A stretch of DNA of 64,000 nt from an uncultured Planctomycetota bacterium (GTDB lineage Bacteria; Planctomycetota; Planctomycetia; Isosphaerales; Isosphaeraceae): NCBI GenBank assembly GCA_963845755.1, contig CAWJTV010000020.1, positions 672,001-736,000 of the forward strand, given 5' to 3'. This document shows, piece after piece, positions 42,785 through 49,536 of this stretch. Position 1 is the stretch's first letter. Each line of letters begins with the position of its first letter. The notes under the pieces were generated by a model. The model did not search any database. It was not told where the DNA came from and worked only from the letters and a program-made list of their open reading frames with translations. Made by a program: the position numbers and the translations under genes.

Positions 42785-43079
42785 TCGACGATCGACAACA
42801 ATGTCTCAGAACGGACGTTACGGCTCCAAGCCATAGGTCGGAACAACTGGCAGTTCCTCGGGAGTGAGGAGGCGGGCTCGCGCGCGGCGGTGCTGTTCAC
42901 CATCCTGGCGGGAGCGAAGCGCCATCACCTGGAGCCATGGGCGTATCTCCGGGACGTGCTGCTACGGCTGAGCGCGGGGGAGACCGAGTTGGAGCCTTTG
43001 CTGCCGGACCGGTGGGCCGCCAGCCATCCGGAGCACGTGCTCCAGCACCGCATCGATGAGTCGCGGCGCAAGGCGGCTC
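42785..43079 (+). pseudogene. IS66 tnpC C-terminal remnant
   Basis: IDNNVSERTLRLQAIGRNNWQFLGS...LEPWAYLRDVL...LLPDRW. Confidence 0.85.
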
Positions 43080-43172
43080 GTGTCCGTCCGGTGAAGTGCA
43101 TCTACAAAGCGGCGTGACTCCCCGCGATGATAGTGCTGTCGGGGCCAGTGGTCCCGTCAGGGAGATCACGCC

Positions 43173-43538
43173 GTGTCTCGAAGCCGAACCATCGATCTAC
43201 GATGGAATGCCCTCCTCAACGATTTCCGCAGGAGCGGTCTGACTCAAGCCGAGTTCTGCCGCCTTCGCCAAATCTCGCTTCACTCCTTCCGAAAGCATCT
43301 CTACCAGCCCGCCCCGGCCGATCGCACTCCCAGCGACGATCGTCCTTTCGCCAGTGCCGACCGCCATTTCCTCCCGGTCACTATCCTTCCCGATCCCATC
43401 CCGCCGAGCGCCGCCTCGGGACCCCACCTCGAACTCATCCTCTCCAACGGACGTCGGATCGCCGTCGCCCCCGGATTCGACCCCCTGACCCTCCGCCATC
43501 TCATCGCGGTCGTGGAGGGACGCCCATGTTCGGACTGA
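43173..43538 (+). CDS. tnpA: IS66 TnpA
   Basis: WNALLNDFRRSGLTQAEFC, FLPVTI, LELILSNGRRIAVAPGFD. Confidence 0.88.
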   Translation: MSRSRTIDLRWNALLNDFRRSGLTQAEFCRLRQISLHSFRKHLYQPAPADRTPSDDRPFASADRHFLPVTILPDPIPPSAASGPHLELILSNGRRIAVAPGFDPLTLRHLIAVVEGRPCSD

Positions 43539-43860
43539 GCGCCGCGGTCCGCGTCTATCTCGCCAAACAGCCGGCCGACATGCGCAAGAGCTTTGACGGC
43601 CTGGCCGCCCTGGCATCAGGCAGCCTGGCGCTAGATCCCCTCTCCGGTCATCTCTTCGTCTTCGTCAACAAGCGCCGCGACCGCATCAAGATCCTGTACT
43701 GGGATCGCGATGGCCTGGCCGTCTGGGCCAAGAAGTACGAGTAAGACTGCCCCCATCCTCTCGACTTTACAGGAATCGTCGGACACCCCCATAATCGCGC
43801 TGGCCGGCCTGATGCGGCTGGCGGAATGGATCGAAGCTCAACACCCCGTGATCCAAGGAG

Positions 43861-44058
43861 GTGCCCCATGTCGCGAGACGCCGGACTCGTTGCTCCCCCC
43901 CGCGCACGTCGGTCGTTCGGCCGTCGGTGCTGGACCAACTCTGGAGCCGACTGACGGACGAGCAGCGTCAACGAACGCTGCTCACCCTCAGCGACATCGT
44001 GACTCGACAACTCGGCGCGCCTCGCACCGCTCAGGAGGTGCGCGATGAAATCTCGTGA
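43861..44058 (+). CDS. Small hypothetical protein overlapping the recombinase start
   Basis: AAGGAGGT RBS near 43855; QLWSRLTDEQRQRTLLTLSDIV; GGAGGTG precedes the recombinase ATG. Confidence 0.45.
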   Translation: MPHVARRRTRCSPPRTSVVRPSVLDQLWSRLTDEQRQRTLLTLSDIVTRQLGAPRTAQEVRDEIS

Positions 44059-46225
44059 TGCACGGGCCGTCAATCGCACGGACAGATCAATCGACGAGAC
44101 TCCATCGACCTCCACCTTCGGCCAGAGGTCGAGCTCGAAGATTGGCGATCGGCATCTCGATCGACTCGCGATCGTGTACGTGCGGCAGTCGACGCCGCAG
44201 CAAGTCCTCGAGAACCGCGAGTCTCGCGAACGGCAGTATGCTCTGGCGCAGTTCGCGCAACGGCTCGGTTGGCCCGCAGAGCGGGTGGTGATCATCGACG
44301 AGGATCAGGGCCACGGCGGCAAGTTGACCGACCATCGCACGGGCTTCCAGCGGTTGATGACGGAAGTGAGCTTGAACCACGTGGGGATCGTGCTGGGGTT
44401 GGAGCTTAGCAGGGTGTCGCGGTCGAATACCGAATGGCATCGTCTTATCGACGTCTGCGGCATCTTTCGCACCCTGCTATGCGATCAAGATGGCGTCTAC
44501 GATGCCTTGGACAGTAACGATCGTCTCCTCCTTGGCATGAAAAGCGCAATGAGCGAATACGAATTGATTACTATGTACAATCGTTTGCTTCGAGGCAGTC
44601 GGAACAAAGCGGAGCGCGGCGAGCTGTTCCTGGCCGTTCCGCTGGGATACCTCAAGACGGCCACGGGCGAGATCATTCAAGAGCCTGACGAGCAGGCGCG
44701 TGGAATGATTCAGTTGGTGTTCGAGAAGTTCGAGGAACTCGGTTCCGCCTACGCGGTCTTCCGTTACCTGGTCGTGAACAACCTGCAACTGGGATTTCGC
44801 CGTCATCGCGGTGGGCGCATTGGGGAGCTGGAGTGGAAGCCAGCCTCTCCCAGTCGAGTCCTGTCGATCTTGCGACACCCCATCTATGCGGGGGCATACG
44901 CTTATGGCCTACATCGCGCGGGGACGAAGAATCCCACGACGGGTCGAGCCGAAGGCGGCAAGTGGTTCGTGCCGCCCGAGGAGTTGGCCGTGTTCCTGCC
45001 GGATCGGCTCCCAGCGTACATTAGCTGGGATCGCTATCTCGCGAATCAGGAACGCCTCAAACAGAATCGATCGCTCCACGACACGCGGGGCGTGCCCAAA
45101 CGCGGCGAGGCCTTGCTGCCCGGCCTGGTCGTCTGTGGGAAATGCGGCCGCCACATGACGACGCGATACAAGGCCGACAAGAAGCCCGGCTATCACTGCG
45201 GCGAGTATTGGCGGCTGGCCCTGGACGAGCCGTGCGGGTGCATCTCGGCAAAGACGCTGGACGACCTGGTCGCGAAGGAAGTGCTCCGCGCGTTGGAGCC
45301 CGCTGCGCTGGACCTGAGCCTACGCGCGATCGAGAACGCCGAGCGAGAGCGCAAGCGCCTCCACGACCATTGGCGTCAGACTCTGGAACGCGCACGCCAG
45401 GAGGTCGAGAGGGCCGAGCGGCAGTATCAGGCCGTGGAGCCCGAGAACCGACTCGTGGCGCGGACACTCGAGGCGCGGTGGGAGGACGCGCTGAAGAAGC
45501 AGCGTCAAACGGAGGAGGATTACCATCGGTTCCTGACGAGACTGCCGGCGACGCTGAACGACGCCGATCGCCAACGGATTCGATCGCTCTCCGAGAGCGT
45601 CGCCGCGCTCTGGCACGCACCAGGCACGTCGGCGATGGATCGCAAGCAGATCGTGCGCTGCGCGGTGGAGCGGGTCATTGTCGTGGCCGACAAGGCGACT
45701 GAGCTCAACGAGGTAACGATCGTTTGGCTCGGCGGCATGACAACCCAACAGCAGGTCGCGAGGCCAGTCGGCAGGTATGAGCAATTGAAGGATTTTCGAC
45801 GCCTCACGGAACGAATCAAGCAACTCCATCGAGAAGGACTTCACCTGTCGCAGATCGCCGCGCGGCTCAATGCCGAGGGCTTCGTCCCGCCGCGCCGTCG
45901 CGGCGTGTTCACGGCGGGAACGATCGGGGCGTTGGTCCGTGAACTTGGGCTGGTCGGAGAACTGTTCCGCGACGACCTCGTCGGCCAGGACGAGTGGTGG
46001 ATCCCCGACTTGGCCGGGAAACTCGGCGTCATCGCCCAGAAGGTCCATTATTGGATCAAGCAGGGTTGGGTCCATTCGCGGCGTACGCCTTCGGGAAAGC
46101 ATCTGATCGTGTGGGCCGACAAGGACGAGGTTCGTCGCCTGCGACAACTGGCCAGACGAAAGAACTCCTGGATCGCCGCCCGGCACCCTGAGTTGGTCGT
46201 TCCCAAGGACCGTCCCGACCGGTAG
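44045..46225 (+). CDS. Large serine recombinase (resolvase, recombinase, Zn ribbon, coiled coil, C-terminal HTHs)
   Basis: AIVYVRQST (catalytic Ser), IDEDQG, LSRVSRS, ILRHPIYAG, LLPGLVVCGKCGRHM, VEPENRLVARTLEARWE. Confidence 0.93.
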   Translation: MKSRDARAVNRTDRSIDETPSTSTFGQRSSSKIGDRHLDRLAIVYVRQSTPQQVLENRESRERQYALAQFAQRLGWPAERVVIIDEDQGHGGKLTDHRTGFQRLMTEVSLNHVGIVLGLELSRVSRSNTEWHRLIDVCGIFRTLLCDQDGVYDALDSNDRLLLGMKSAMSEYELITMYNRLLRGSRNKAERGELFLAVPLGYLKTATGEIIQEPDEQARGMIQLVFEKFEELGSAYAVFRYLVVNNLQLGFRRHRGGRIGELEWKPASPSRVLSILRHPIYAGAYAYGLHRAGTKNPTTGRAEGGKWFVPPEELAVFLPDRLPAYISWDRYLANQERLKQNRSLHDTRGVPKRGEALLPGLVVCGKCGRHMTTRYKADKKPGYHCGEYWRLALDEPCGCISAKTLDDLVAKEVLRALEPAALDLSLRAIENAERERKRLHDHWRQTLERARQEVERAERQYQAVEPENRLVARTLEARWEDALKKQRQTEEDYHRFLTRLPATLNDADRQRIRSLSESVAALWHAPGTSAMDRKQIVRCAVERVIVVADKATELNEVTIVWLGGMTTQQQVARPVGRYEQLKDFRRLTERIKQLHREGLHLSQIAARLNAEGFVPPRRRGVFTAGTIGALVRELGLVGELFRDDLVGQDEWWIPDLAGKLGVIAQKVHYWIKQGWVHSRRTPSGKHLIVWADKDEVRRLRQLARRKNSWIAARHPELVVPKDRPDR

Positions 46226-46541
46226 CAAGAGAGGCCGCCGATTCGTGGCGGCAGTAGCCCAACGTCTCAGGATTTGTGTAACGCCACAAGAACGAGGGTC
46301 CTGTGATGCCAGCATCAAGAGGCTCGAACGCGGCACCTTCCGCATCCCGGACGCGGCGGCCGATCGCGTCGAGATGACCACCGCCGAACTCGCCGCCCTC
46401 CTGGCCGGCATCGATCTGGACAAGGCCCGACGGCGCGTCCGCTACTCGCGGCCCGCCACTCCCCTTCGAAATTCGGAGAATAATCTACCGACAGGAGCAT
46501 AATGCGCCAACAATCGAGCACCCGTCAACGTAGTATAGGGT

Positions 46542-48118
46542 ATGATCACCCTCGCGGACCCACTCCCGGACGACCTGGAGGCGGCCCATCAGCTCATCCG
46601 TGAGCTGCTCAAGTCGCTCGCCCAGCAGGTCCATCTCAACGAGAAGCTCCAGCACCAGCTCGAGCAGCTCCTCCGCCAGCGCGACGGTCCCAAAGGGGAG
46701 CGGATCGACCCGGCCCAGCTCTTGCTCTTCGCCCGGGAGATCCTGGAGCAGGCCGAGGCGGCGCCGACACCCGCCCCGACCCCGGAGCCGGCCCCGGCCC
46801 CGACGCCCGCTCCGAGTGCGGCCCAGAAGAAGGGCCACGGACGCAAGCCGTTGCCGGCGAGCCTGCCCCGAGTGCCGGTCTTGCACGACGTCCCGCCCGA
46901 ACAACGCACTTGCCCCGACTGCGGCGCCGACGCGCACCTGCATCGGCCGGGAAGTCCGCGAGCAACTCGAATTCATCCCCGCCCGCCTGGTCATCCTCGA
47001 ACACATCCGCCCCAAGTACGCTTGCCAGGACTGCCAGGCCAACGTCGTGATCGCCGACGTGCTCCCCGAGCCGATCGACAAGGGCCTGCCAGGCCCGGGG
47101 CTGCTGGCTTACGTCGCCGTCAGCAAATATGCCGATCACTTGCCGCTCTATCGCCTCGAGGGAATCCTCGATCGCTCGGGCGTCGAGTTGTCGCGGTCGA
47201 CGATGTGCGACTGGATGGCCACGATCGCCGATCTGCTCAAGCCGATCGTCGATCTGATGCTGAAGAAGATCCTCAGCTCCAGGGTCGTCCAGAACGACGA
47301 CACGACGGTGCCGGTGCAGGACCACGACGGCAAGGGGATCAAGACCGGCCGGCTCTGGGTCTCCGTCGGCGACCGCGGCCATCCTTACGTGGTCTATCGC
47401 TACACGCCGGACCGCAGCGCCACCGGGCCCCGGGAGATCTTCAAGGACTTCCAGGGTTATCTCCAGGCCGACGCCTATTCGGCCTACGACGGCCTGTACA
47501 AGTCGGGCGAGATTATCGAGGTCGGCTGCATGATGCACGCGCGACGGAAGTTCTACGAGGCGCGGACCGTTCGACCCGCAACGGTCCCATCAGGCGCTGG
47601 CATGGATCAGCCTGCTCTACGACGTCGAACGCGACGCCAAGAAGCGCGCGACCGCGGACTACGAGGCCTTCGTCGCGTTCCGGCACGAACTGCGAAACGA
47701 GCGATCGCGTTCGATCTTCGACAAGTTTCACGCCTGGCTGGAAGCCGAGCAGCCCAAGGTTCTGCCCAAGAGTCCGATCGGCGAAGCGATCCAGTATGCC
47801 TTGAACCATTGGGAGGCCCTGAAGCGTCCGTTGGAGGCCGGGTTCCTCGAACTGGACAACGGTGCGTGCGCGTGCGCGTTCAAGCCCGTGGCGCTGGGAC
47901 GGAAGAACTGGTTATTCGCGGGGAGCGACCAGGGAGGCCAGACGGCGGCCGTGTTGATGAGCTTGTGCACGACCTGCAAGAATCTGGGGATCGACCCCCA
48001 GGCTTACCTCCGCGATGGGCTCGATCGGATCAGCACGCACCCGGCGAAGCGGATCGACGAACTGCTGCCGGACCGCTGGCAGGAGTTGCACCAGGCCGGC
48101 GCCGACGGGACTGAGTGA
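46542..48118 (+). CDS. tnpC: IS66 TnpC transposase (frameshifted)
   Basis: CPDCG, RPKYACQDC, KYADHLPLYRL, NDDTTVPV, YLQADAYSAY, CMMHARRKF, LDNG...GRKNWLFAGS. Confidence 0.93.
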
Positions 48119-48474
48119 CCGCACCCGAGCCCCGCGCTCCTCGTCACCCCGGACGAGCGCGGGGCGATTGCGCGCGCCCTCAAGGTTTGTCCCGCCCCAA
48201 GTTCGTCTCGGCCCGGCGCGAGCGCGGGATGATCGCGTGCGCCGAGCACAGTGAAAGAATCAAGACGGTGCCCCGAACATCATCTCACGCCCGTGAACCG
48301 CTTTGAAGATGTGGTTCACCGGACGCACTCGACCAGTTTGTATGCTCTGGCGGTCGGATGCGGGTCTCCGGCACGTCCGAGTGTGACCTCGGCTCATGCG
48401 GGAATTCAGACGCATGACGCTGCGAGGATGTTCGCGCCAGGGAAGATTATTTGAGACAGGCCGTGGCCTGAGCC

Positions 48475-49536
48475 TCACTCGGCCGCCCTCGCCGAAAGTA
48501 CGGGCTCCGTCGCTTCATGACGGCCGTTCTGATAGACGGCTCGCTCGGCGGTCGCTGAGAACGTTCTCACAGCCGGCGTTGACGTGGTCCGGCCAGGAAT
48601 CCACGCTTCCACAACCCGTCTCACCGCTTCGGCGGGCAGGAACGACGCACAGCCGACCAGCATGATGAGCCCGAACGTCCACATTCCGAGGCAGGCACCG
48701 ATCCCGATGTGGAGCGCAACCCCCAAGGTGAGGACGAGAGGCCGCAGTCTCGGCACCCAGATCAGGGCGCAAAAAGACAATTCCCAGAGGACCGAGACGT
48801 GAGTCATGAAATCCAGGAGCCGTGGGTGCCAGGCGAGCCAGGTCATGTCGATCGACTGGTACTCCAGGTTGGCGAACGCCCGCCACATCGCCTCGCCATT
48901 CCACCAGGCCGGGCCCTGGAGCTTGGAAATGCCGGCGAAGAAATAGATGACGCACATGTGGACGTTGATCAGTCGCAACCCCAGGTTTGCTCCGGCACTC
49001 GGCGCCGGACGCCCGGCCGGGGCCCCGCTCCGTCGTAGGGCCAGCCAGCGATCCAGCGAGAGCGCCGCTCCGCTGGGTCCGATGGTCAGGTACAGGGTGA
49101 GCATCGCGTTGATCTGGTCGAGACCGAACGTGGCCGCCGGAACCCGGTGCGCGAAGGAGAGCGTGACCACCAGCGCCAGGATCGAGGTCACGCGCGTCCA
49201 CAGGCCGAACGTGAATAACGCGAGGACGACCATCGAAAGGCCCCAGGCGATCCAGATCCACCCTTGGGGAACGAGCCACCAGAAGGAATAGATGTACGAT
49301 CCTTGCTGGAGCGTTCGCACGAGACGTTCGCTCAGCCAGCTCCCTGGTCCGAAGAAATCGCCCAGCACCAGGCCCCAGACCGCGTGCGTGTAGAGCAGCA
49401 TCAAGCCCGTCAGGACGCGCAGAACTCCGAGGAGTGTCGGGTCGGCCGGGGTAAACCAGAAGGCATTCCACGCCTCCGCCGTCGCCTGGGCGGACTCTTC
49501 CACATAGCGGAAGACCGGGTTCAGTAACCTTCGCAT
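48475..49536 (-). CDS. HTTM-domain membrane protein (SdpB / gamma-carboxylase-like)
   Basis: WNAFWFTPADPTLLGVLRVLTG, FTFGLWTR, FGLDQI, ALSLDRW, IYFFAGISKLQGPAWWNGEA, LHIGIGACLGMWTFGLIML. Confidence 0.88.
   Translation of the reverse strand: MRRLLNPVFRYVEESAQATAEAWNAFWFTPADPTLLGVLRVLTGLMLLYTHAVWGLVLGDFFGPGSWLSERLVRTLQQGSYIYSFWWLVPQGWIWIAWGLSMVVLALFTFGLWTRVTSILALVVTLSFAHRVPAATFGLDQINAMLTLYLTIGPSGAALSLDRWLALRRSGAPAGRPAPSAGANLGLRLINVHMCVIYFFAGISKLQGPAWWNGEAMWRAFANLEYQSIDMTWLAWHPRLLDFMTHVSVLWELSFCALIWVPRLRPLVLTLGVALHIGIGACLGMWTFGLIMLVGCASFLPAEAVRRVVEAWIPGRTTSTPAVRTFSATAERAVYQNGRHEATEPVLSARAAE

Follow-up and report, generated by a model that had tools for sequence, protein, structure and literature searches.

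The tnpB gene of an IS66-family insertion sequence (IS) in the 64,000-nucleotide stretch of Planctomycetota DNA analysed here (the window) is interrupted by 2587 bp that encode a large serine recombinase (LSR). The locus raises the question of what this insert is and how it came to lie within a gene of another transposon. We consider it highly probable that it is an autonomous, cargo-free integrative element of about 2.6 kb, which would be moved by its own LSR, has its attachment site (attB) in IS66 tnpB, and would have a small partner gene that spans the junction of its circular form. The parts of the locus on which this reading rests are as follows.

43526..43732, + strand: 5′ part of tnpB, codons 1-69, ending in G-L-A-V-W-A-K (PF05717 match)
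43733..46319, + strand: inserted LSR element, 2587 bp, whose boundary slides by at most 3 bases within the common AAG
44045..46225, + strand: LSR of 726 amino acids (aa), assigned from Pfam, invariant residues, an AlphaFold model and Foldseek
46320..46502, + strand: 3′ part of tnpB, beginning with R-L-E-R-G-T-F (PF05717 match)

An LSR gene inserted in tnpB

The insert cuts tnpB after codon 69, between W-A-K and R-L-E. The left piece (43526-43741) matches positions 2-64 of the 101-position TnpB_IS66 profile PF05717 (E 4.7e-25) and the right piece (46320-46499) matches positions 63-100 (E 1.7e-6); the two adjoin in the profile, and removal of the insert in silico gives an in-frame GLAVWAK-RLERGTF. 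An earlier note on this DNA, made from the letters alone, had described a tnpB break at GLAVWAK with resumption 2587 bp on at RLERGTF, and an in-frame restoration of a W-x-KRLE-x-G motif upon excision. The profile halves with their coordinates and the in-silico removal bear out both statements. Its description of the insert as a cargo-free sequence with a 726-aa LSR agrees with the open reading frames (ORFs) and Pfam matches: the 2587 bp hold the LSR gene and the frame of a small partner only, and neither cargo nor mobilisation genes are found in them. Terminal inverted repeats, which had been judged absent, are not seen either, in that none of the longest 25 of 194 inverted pairs connects the element termini.

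A trivial explanation would be an artefact of long-read assembly, in which a recombinase was chimerically joined into a repeated IS; many single-base errors in the repeat copies and an odd truncated tandem array at the end of one contig (C13) could be cited in its favor. The junctions, on whose support the earlier proposal had been made to depend, are however bridged with 0-2 differences by Logan contigs from four soil runs (X1-X4) of one study, possibly including the source sample, so that the support comes from another assembly and not necessarily from another sample. Specifically, X1 record 2 spans 43205-46759 with 2 differences and 0 gaps, X4 record 25 spans 43080-43987, and X2 record 12 spans 45907-46776. 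The tnpB break also recurs in 8 further copies of this genome and at 15 loci of other assemblies, and the same junctions are present in 13 other assemblies made by different methods. An artefact therefore has a negligible probability.

Three Pfam domains were found in the LSR: Resolvase (PF00239, residues 42-193, E 5.5e-16), Recombinase (PF07508, residues 221-341, E 6.6e-12) and Zn_ribbon_recom (PF13408, residues 357-413, E 1e-9). The protein has the motif Y-V-R-Q-S, and S49 and other residues of the catalytic domain are invariant among 10 sequences with identities down to 45%, as are the zinc-ribbon cysteines C364, C367, C385 and C397. The AlphaFold model (mean predicted local distance difference test score, pLDDT, 69.1; predicted TM-score, pTM, 0.37) comprises a catalytic domain, a recombinase domain and a zinc ribbon with a long coiled-coil at residues 402-499, the helices of which (402-463 and 469-499) have pLDDT values of about 80-90. 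A further C-terminal extension of about 220 residues, conserved in all three lineages described below, is modeled as a helix/sheet module (506-640) and a winged-helix-like module (650-705). A Foldseek search with the model returned 25 matches at E <= 0.001. Among the matches listed all are serine integrases, the best being 9dxf_A (E 1.8e-14), with 9tep_A, 9iu2_A, 4kis_B, phiC31 and Bxb1 also present; different placement of the domains keeps the TM-scores low (0.13-0.22 of the query).

The claim that the C terminus has extra helix-turn-helix-like domains stands in part: helix and strand modules are present in the model, but the sequence matches are weak and under cut-offs (Rv2175c_wHTH, E 0.0057; MerR_1, E 0.0029). 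By Foldseek, the last module is weakly similar to a MerR winged helix (RacA, E 0.13). DUF4368 gave no match on the whole LSR at E <= 0.01, nor on residues 501-726 at E <= 5. Small recombinases of the IS607 type have an N-terminal DNA-binding domain and a C-terminal catalytic domain; here the catalytic domain is N-terminal and the protein is 726 aa long.

Site use and mobility

Within its own genome assembly (14.3 Mb, 49 contigs, 87.9% complete) the insert is present in eight copies at 99.65-100% identity and one at 97.3%, the IS of the latter being 95.6% identical. All copies occupy an identical position in the same IS66, such that the repeated unit is a 5.25-kb composite; no empty copy of this IS was found in this genome, all 8-9 copies being filled. 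Clean 8-bp duplications flank the copies on contigs C22 (GCTCACGC) and C19 (TCACAAGA), those of the two copies on contig C20 are exchanged between them (GGCGGCTC / GACCAGTT), and no matching 8-bp duplication was found at three composite copies. Because the composite is the repeated unit, all copies are filled, and flanks and 8-bp duplications differ, multiplication in this genome is best explained mainly by riding on the transposition of the filled IS66, and not by nine integrations. The window composite (43080-48330) and a second one just past the window end (G000:C20:738505-743758) are inverted relative to each other. From the swapped duplications it follows that the segment of about 18 kb between the two C20 copies was inverted by recombination between them.

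At the end of contig C13 (L019, 343104-351972), the assembly reads IS-left, element, IS-right 1-1085, a diverged element from base 37 (97%) and a diverged IS-right (95.6%); the missing IS-right 1089-2015 is found on contig C9 (G000:C9:1396-2321). This array is either a rearrangement between copies or a misassembly.

This genome would agree with a single ancient insertion that has since only co-diverged with IS66 and been carried by it, with common descent explaining the shared site. Every IS copy is filled, the copies differ marginally, the diverged copy is diverged in both of its parts, and distinct flanks with 8-bp duplications indicate that the composite moves as one unit. The relatives contradict this as a complete explanation. 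A scan of one genome per species yielded 24 loci, of which 19 (L020-L038, in 15 other assemblies, with LSRs 56-83% identical) constitute clade A. The earlier note had taken a conserved tnpB motif as the attB of a hyperparasite and asked whether other copies occupy the same codon. This is true of 15 of the 19 clade-A loci, in 13 assemblies and in different IS66 backbones: tnpB is broken at W-x-K / R-L-E and is always co-oriented with the LSR gene (both junctions available at 7 loci, the left only at 4 and the right only at 4). Three more (L028, L029, L030) have ordinary genes on both sides and the same element ends, and one has no flank. The low target specificity that is a trait of TnpX and TndX is thus not seen here. 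The element ends are conserved in these relatives and the LSR identity (67-83%) is far above that of the host IS66 genes, which are only 43-69% (tnpB 5′ part) and 25-54% (tnpA) identical to those of the window at the amino-acid level.

Comparisons within single genomes are the most direct. Two elements of one genome (L020 and L023) are 99.7% identical, whereas their IS flanks are only 74.7% and 80.7% identical; two elements of G002 (L021 and L022) are 99.3% identical with IS flanks at 81.2% and 63.7%. Near-identical elements thus sit in IS66 backbones only 64-81% identical. Furthermore, G002 has both an empty (L044) and a filled (L022) copy of the same IS. Their 200-bp flanks are 99% and 100% identical, and the filled copy is longer by exactly 2587 bp, with AAG in common. 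The products seen are a site with and a site without precisely this element; attP x attB recombination catalysed by the LSR would account for them. A census of PF05717 in five other genomes showed that uninterrupted and split tnpB genes coexist, with about 12 uninterrupted and 2 split in G002. Because of the within-genome pairs, the empty and filled copies of one IS and this census, a single ancient insertion cannot give the pattern; with three copies outside any IS besides, we regard it as very improbable. Precise insertion, site specificity, independent insertions and an intact LSR are observed.

Three further observations concern the relatives and their targets. An uninterrupted tnpB gene at G001:C19:2972120-2972620 (L056) has 7 additional bases, AAGCAAA, directly after its Lys codon and before R-L-E, which shift the frame; the first five match the element left end. 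They may be a footprint of an imprecisely lost element, or a sequencing error. The left IS flank of L021 is like that of L022 (81%) and its right flank is like the uninterrupted IS at L045, all three in G002, a chimera that could arise by recombination between elements in two IS66 types. Finally, five loci (L025, L027, L034, L036, L038) are on short contigs binned as Gemmatimonadaceae, Acidobacteriota, Alcaligenaceae or Actinomycetes, reflecting either mis-binning of a repeat or real spread across phyla.

The alignments also bear on the crossover. The earlier note had proposed a CAAGA core, and this pentamer is present at both window junctions (43729-43733 and again at 46316-46320, spaced 2587 bp apart), but it is particular to the window copy: relatives in tnpB have only AAG in common at both junctions, and the three relatives at other sites only AA. 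In L028 and L029, AA is followed by G on the left and by A on the right, as an exchange at AA would leave it. The most likely point of strand exchange is the AA of the Lys codon, and the constant orientation of the LSR gene relative to tnpB fits, since AA is not palindromic. Dyad symmetry of attB within 24 bp on either side of the core (7.0/24 against about 6 expected) was uninformative.

Based on these results, we propose that the LSR recombines attP with attB, where attP would be the right end (about 46270-46319) joined to the left end (about 43733-43790) in the excised circle, and attB the IS66 tnpB stretch that encodes D-G-L-x-x-W-x-K-R-L-E-x-G-x-F. Exchange at the non-palindromic AA would fix the direction of the LSR gene as that of tnpB, and excision would restore tnpB exactly. 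The element moves between different IS66 types within a cell, and in this genome its copies multiplied with the transposition of the filled IS66. The crossover dinucleotide is something we infer, as are excision, the role of the junction-spanning protein described below and the reading of a run of seven C residues (C7) in its frame.

A proposed partner frame divided between the element ends

Besides the LSR gene, the element has two conserved coding stretches at its left end and a conserved ATG at its right end.

43734..43901, + strand: left-end part of the junction-spanning frame (codon start mod 0), containing P-I-I-A-L-A-G-L-M-R-L-A-E-W-I and ending in the C7 run at 43895-43901
43766..43795, + strand: promoter-like TTTACA-18-CATAAT in the left end, with 10 of 12 consensus matches, predicted only
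43894..44058, + strand: downstream conserved part (codon start mod 1), with L-D-Q-L-W-S-R-L-T-D-E-Q-R-Q-R-T-L, corresponding to the 65-aa ORF listed at 43861-44058
46306..46308, + strand: conserved ATG in the right-end motif GTGATGCCA, 14 nt before the junction, the proposed start in the circular form

In 13 aligned left ends, conservation follows a 3-base rhythm, first in the mod 0 frame (P-I-I-S-L-A-G-L-L-R-L-A-E-W-I) and, after the C run, in the mod 1 frame (L-D-Q-L-W-x-x-L-T-D-E-Q-R-Q-R-T-L). Substitutions at the three codon positions are 0.14/0.10/0.31 at 43793-43822 and 0.49/0.15/0.18 at 43957-43986, and this codon periodicity supports a coding status. The upstream frame is open and conserved at the protein level in 9 of the 9 loci tested, and no conserved start for it was found within the left end. 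The downstream part has its stop 11 nt past the start codon of the LSR gene.

A start is found when the circle junctions are rebuilt. The right-end ATG is directly the first in-frame ATG in 8 of 11 clade-A loci, and with L028 and L029, which join once an AA-only core is allowed, the conserved start serves 10 of the 11. In clade B, a sister lineage described below, the right end has AGGAGG-N5-ATG at -16, in frame with that clade's version of the peptide; its locus L041 has a continuous frame of 113 aa, the stop of which is 11 nt after the recombinase start. Similarly, the right end of a third lineage, on contig C48, has GGAGGG-N4-GTG at -13, likewise in frame. In three lineages, then, the sequences place what reads as a start signal at one element end and the gene body at the other, so that the frame would be completed only when the ends join in a circle. 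The 65-aa upstream ORF to which the earlier note had pointed is present, but it appears not to be a free-standing gene: it reads as the 3′ part of a frame of about 110 aa that would be complete only in the excised circle. Excision would join the right-end start codon to the left-end frame and yield a protein of about 110 aa.

The partner has no Pfam match at E <= 0.01 (at E <= 5 only noise, PCM1_C and WH_CYT4), and a search of the ESM Atlas gave a best score of 0.79 to unnamed clusters, under the 0.9 level. A complex was predicted for the pair from L032, using LSR residues 345-729 and the 107-aa contiguous part of the ORF, with an alignment for each. The prediction scored 0.71, against 0.00 for the best of 3 controls; of 157 solved complexes 116 attain this mark, as do 2 of 215 mismatched pairs, counts that are rough when own alignments are used. 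At least 2% of contacts recur between the runs, and the pLDDT of the partner is at least 44. The predicted contacts connect ORF residues 63-95, the conserved helix region, with LSR residues 416-440, 503-544 and 565-571 (L032 numbering). These LSR segments lead into and out of the coiled-coil at its foot, or belong to the domain next to it. The model supports binding of the partner to the LSR, and a partner resembling a directionality factor, the role that the earlier note had suggested for the small ORF, fits, since the predicted interface is where directionality factors bind. It is the conserved C-terminal half of the protein of about 110 aa that is predicted to bind the LSR there.

Several findings weigh against the proposed element and its partner frame. 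Over 42900-48500, the contigs of X1-X4 contain neither an excised circle nor a joint that skips the element, and such contigs drop rare forms. The comparison loci are all in metagenome bins, several on short contigs. As assembled, an uninterrupted 726-aa frame is present only in the window copy, one of 7 aligned copies. The differences among these copies are single-base insertions, deletions and substitutions clustered at GCGC-, GTCGAC- and CGCGCG-like motifs (variable columns 43900-48180) and look like systematic long-read consensus errors, perhaps at methylated motifs. We attribute the broken LSR frames of the other copies to assembly errors at GCGC-like motifs, a point checked for the window copy, and the majority sequence of the 7 encodes an intact 524-aa transposase and the 726-aa recombinase. 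At the left junction, L037 has A where a crossover at AA predicts G. The complex prediction is fallible, and the fold of the partner is uncertain (pLDDT <50 in one run).

The C run is a further difficulty, in that C7 puts the two conserved halves of the frame out of phase and only C6 puts them in phase. Seven C are found in the window, where contig X1 agrees, and in L024, L025, L027, L028 and L038, taken as short-read assemblies from their contig names; six are found in L021, L029, L032 and L041. L022 reaches the downstream conserved frame despite its C7 count, another insertion or deletion being likely. A full-length product with C7 would need a +1 shift on CCC-C or a C6 variant, and without a shift the C7 frame ends at the TGA of the ATGA at the recombinase start. 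Programmed frameshifting, phase variation and homopolymer error fit the run lengths equally.

Moreover, the promoter-like site and an internal AAGGAGG-N6-ATG lie inside the junction frame, and the upstream conserved stretch could fail to be translated from the right-end ATG. Because of these two signals, a shorter product made in the integrated state is possible. Three promoter-like sites were found in the region against 0.6 expected, and both hexamers of this one are kept in the 13 aligned left ends, where the same bases lie inside the conserved reading frame. Lastly, if excision needs the partner, a gene that becomes complete only in the circle is harder to explain.

Two other accounts of these frames were rejected. 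The element does not supply the missing part of a functional split TnpB, in that the tnpB frame runs 3 to >30 codons into the left end without a conserved stop, and no conserved start lies upstream of the right junction. Nor does the flank provide a start codon for the left-end frame: an in-frame ATG, derived from GAT-GGN, occurs in 6 of 11 left flanks, as expected of codon choice alone.

Wider lineages, known systems and the host IS66

Clade B consists of four loci (L040-L043) in one Gemmataceae bin, with LSRs 36-48% identical (about 46% for the clade), one element type and identical ends. Its copies lie in four different genes, each cut at R-W-x-I/V-E with the GA of the Glu codon in common. 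The flanks match Pfam DDE_Tnp_1, at profile positions 5-165 on the left (L041) and 161-200 on the right (L042), with Pfam support at 3 of the 4 loci. In this sister clade, the target is the codon for the catalytic Glu of DDE_Tnp_1 transposases. The family as a whole therefore hunts conserved codons in at least two kinds of transposase gene. The third lineage, on contig C48 of the window's own genome, is 49% identical and is a 2614-bp element bounded by a 7-bp repeat.

These lineages bear on the idea that the element is a reversible switch for the IS or its host, in which excision and re-integration toggle tnpB and thus the activity of IS66, much as recombinase-carrying elements interrupt sporulation or heterocyst genes, and in which it would not be a purely selfish parasite. 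Excision would restore tnpB in frame, the filled IS is present at 8-9 copies in a genome that has no uninterrupted tnpB of its own type, and a frame completed only in the circle would give state-dependent expression. In other genomes, however, most tnpB copies are empty (about 12 of 14 in G002), no excision product is among the contigs of X1-X4, and the presence of the element at non-IS sites and of its sister clade in unrelated transposase genes fits a selfish choice of target; we consider a switch unlikely. A broader proposal joins the above threads and can be held only tentatively, being somewhat less probable than its negation: that a guild of IS-sized LSR elements homes to codons of transposon genes, senses its own state through a split partner, sets the dose of that partner by a +1 shift at C7, and acts as reversible switches of the parasitised transposons. 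Its targets would include the Lys codon of W-x-K-R-L-E in IS66 tnpB, the catalytic Glu codon of DDE_Tnp_1 and possibly others.

More distant homologues differ in their surroundings. Among 400 other genomes of the phylum that were sampled, 17 have an LSR homologue at E <= 1e-40, all at 33-45% identity; their flanks were scanned for frames of at least 130 aa (111 of 317), and shorter gene fragments would escape. At 6 of the 17 loci (within the set L063-L069; LSR 35-40% identical) an HTH_28/HTH_32 gene precedes the LSR gene, with a DUF5372 gene in addition at L063, and the upstream ORFs of two loci of the window's genome (L015 on C26 and L017 on C6) are similar by eye. This is an accessory set different from that of the element studied here. 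At L069 (G077:C84, 515-710 and 986-3623), an LSR gene (36% identical) with an HTH_28/HTH_32 gene stands in opposite orientation to an adjoining tnpB, which is of the W-L-C-H-K subtype and has its break at the same Lys codon; this hints at convergent site use by another LSR lineage. Contig C9 of the window's genome has a second LSR gene on the minus strand (L013, 4527-7200), 35% identical, with its own small upstream ORF and a Shine-Dalgarno sequence plus ATG at the far end; on one side it borders the tnpB of a different IS66, otherwise uninterrupted, near codon 20, and on the other there is a tnpA-like tail. This may be a related element that uses another tnpB site.

In life style, the element appears closest to the clostridial serine transposons Tn4451/Tn4453. 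These (TnpX) and Tn5397 (TndX) resemble it in having an LSR of about 700 aa, no inverted repeats and, as proposed here, a circle intermediate. Tn4451, Tn4453 and Tn5397 have genes for cargo and mobilisation and use many target sites that contain GA, whereas this element is cargo-free, 2.6 kb long, without a DUF4368 match and strongly specific for one transposon codon. The circle junction of Tn4451 reportedly creates an expression signal, a promoter, for its recombinase TnpX; here the junction would instead complete a frame translationally linked to the LSR gene.

Other systems share individual features. phiRv1 of Mycobacterium tuberculosis, a prophage-like LSR element of about 9 kb with a separate recombination directionality factor (RDF) gene, integrates into the repeated REP13E12. 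It is similar in having its attB in a repeated sequence with several alternative sites per genome, but it uses one repeat family of one species, in contrast to a protein-coding motif conserved across an IS family. The skin element (SpoIVCA) in sigK and the fdxN element with XisF also split host genes with an element that contains a serine recombinase gene and whose excision restores the gene; they are large, mostly immobile and developmentally controlled, unlike the present element, which is small, recently mobile and splits transposon genes. Tn5053/Tn402 'res hunters' and group II introns in IS elements also home to other mobile elements, where a conserved feature offers a harmless, multi-copy and horizontally travelling site. 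They do so with a DDE transposase and TniQ, or with a ribozyme and reverse transcriptase, at res sites or intron homing sites.

The integrases of SPbeta, phiC31 and Bxb1 are alike in domain order, in a zinc ribbon with an inserted coiled-coil and in fold, and, as proposed here, in precise attP x attB insertion with a tiny common core. The present element differs from phage and integrative conjugative element integrases in having no phage or conjugation cargo, about 220 extra C-terminal residues, a partner gene that would be split by integration, and a multi-copy transposon gene as its target. The SPbeta RDF binds at the foot of the coiled-coil (PMC11722253), and the small partner is predicted at the same place. 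LSRs of the TnpX/TndX clade usually have DUF4368 according to the preprint of Durrant et al. (10.1101/2021.11.05.467528); the text of the preprint consulted does not mention IS genes as LSR targets, and its supplementary files might list such cases. Full-text searches of the literature yielded no account of LSR elements of IS size with conserved codons of IS genes as their targets, and a paper on phage WO that came up proved unrelated.

Together, the findings support a site-specific LSR element specialised on transposon genes, with an unusual split partner gene. A layer of parasitism in which a minimal site-specific element lands in a conserved codon of another transposon's gene is apparently new in print, and the landing site in tnpB is harmless to the cell, exists in many copies and itself travels between genomes. 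Since filled and empty sites reveal attP and attB directly, this LSR and its sister lineages are testable integrases with natural targets of 40-50 bp; if the broader proposal were true, thousands of genomes would already contain their attB sites. If real, a partner gene that spans the junction would be a compact means of sensing the integrated versus the free state. In IS679, all three genes are reported to be needed for transposition. An IS66 with a split tnpB at 8-9 copies bears on the role of TnpB in this family.

The host IS has the following further features.

43080..48330, + strand: host IS66-family composite, 5251 bp, of which 8 copies start and end at identical bases (blastn with flanks)
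Composite termini: left end GTGTCCGTCCGGTGAA..., right end ...TTCACCGGACGCACTC
43173..43538, + strand: IS66 tnpA-like ORF, 121 aa, from the ORF list, placed 5′ of and overlapping tnpB as in IS66
46542..48118, + strand: IS66 transposase gene tnpC, in three frames in the window as assembled

Membership in IS66 is indicated by tnpA, tnpB (PF05717) and tnpC in a row, by the element ends and by the 8-bp duplications. The tnpA-like ORF has no Pfam match; homologues are found at the same place in L020-L023, L037 and L038 (tblastn, 25-54% identity). The tnpC domains LZ_Tnp_IS66, zf-IS66, DDE_Tnp_IS66 and DDE_Tnp_IS66_C are spread over the three frames of the window, whereas the majority sequence of 7 copies is a single 524-aa frame, intact in the C22 and C21 copies (2 of 7). 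Because the Logan contigs disagree with the window at 46931, 47570 and 48176, where single bases are missing or added, the window frameshifts look like assembly errors. Directly to the left of the composite, positions 42890-43117 encode a fragment from the C terminus of a further IS66-type transposase (DDE_Tnp_IS66_C, E 1.2e-6, slightly under the cut-off). As this fragment adjoins the left end, the composite IS landed beside or in an older IS66 remnant.

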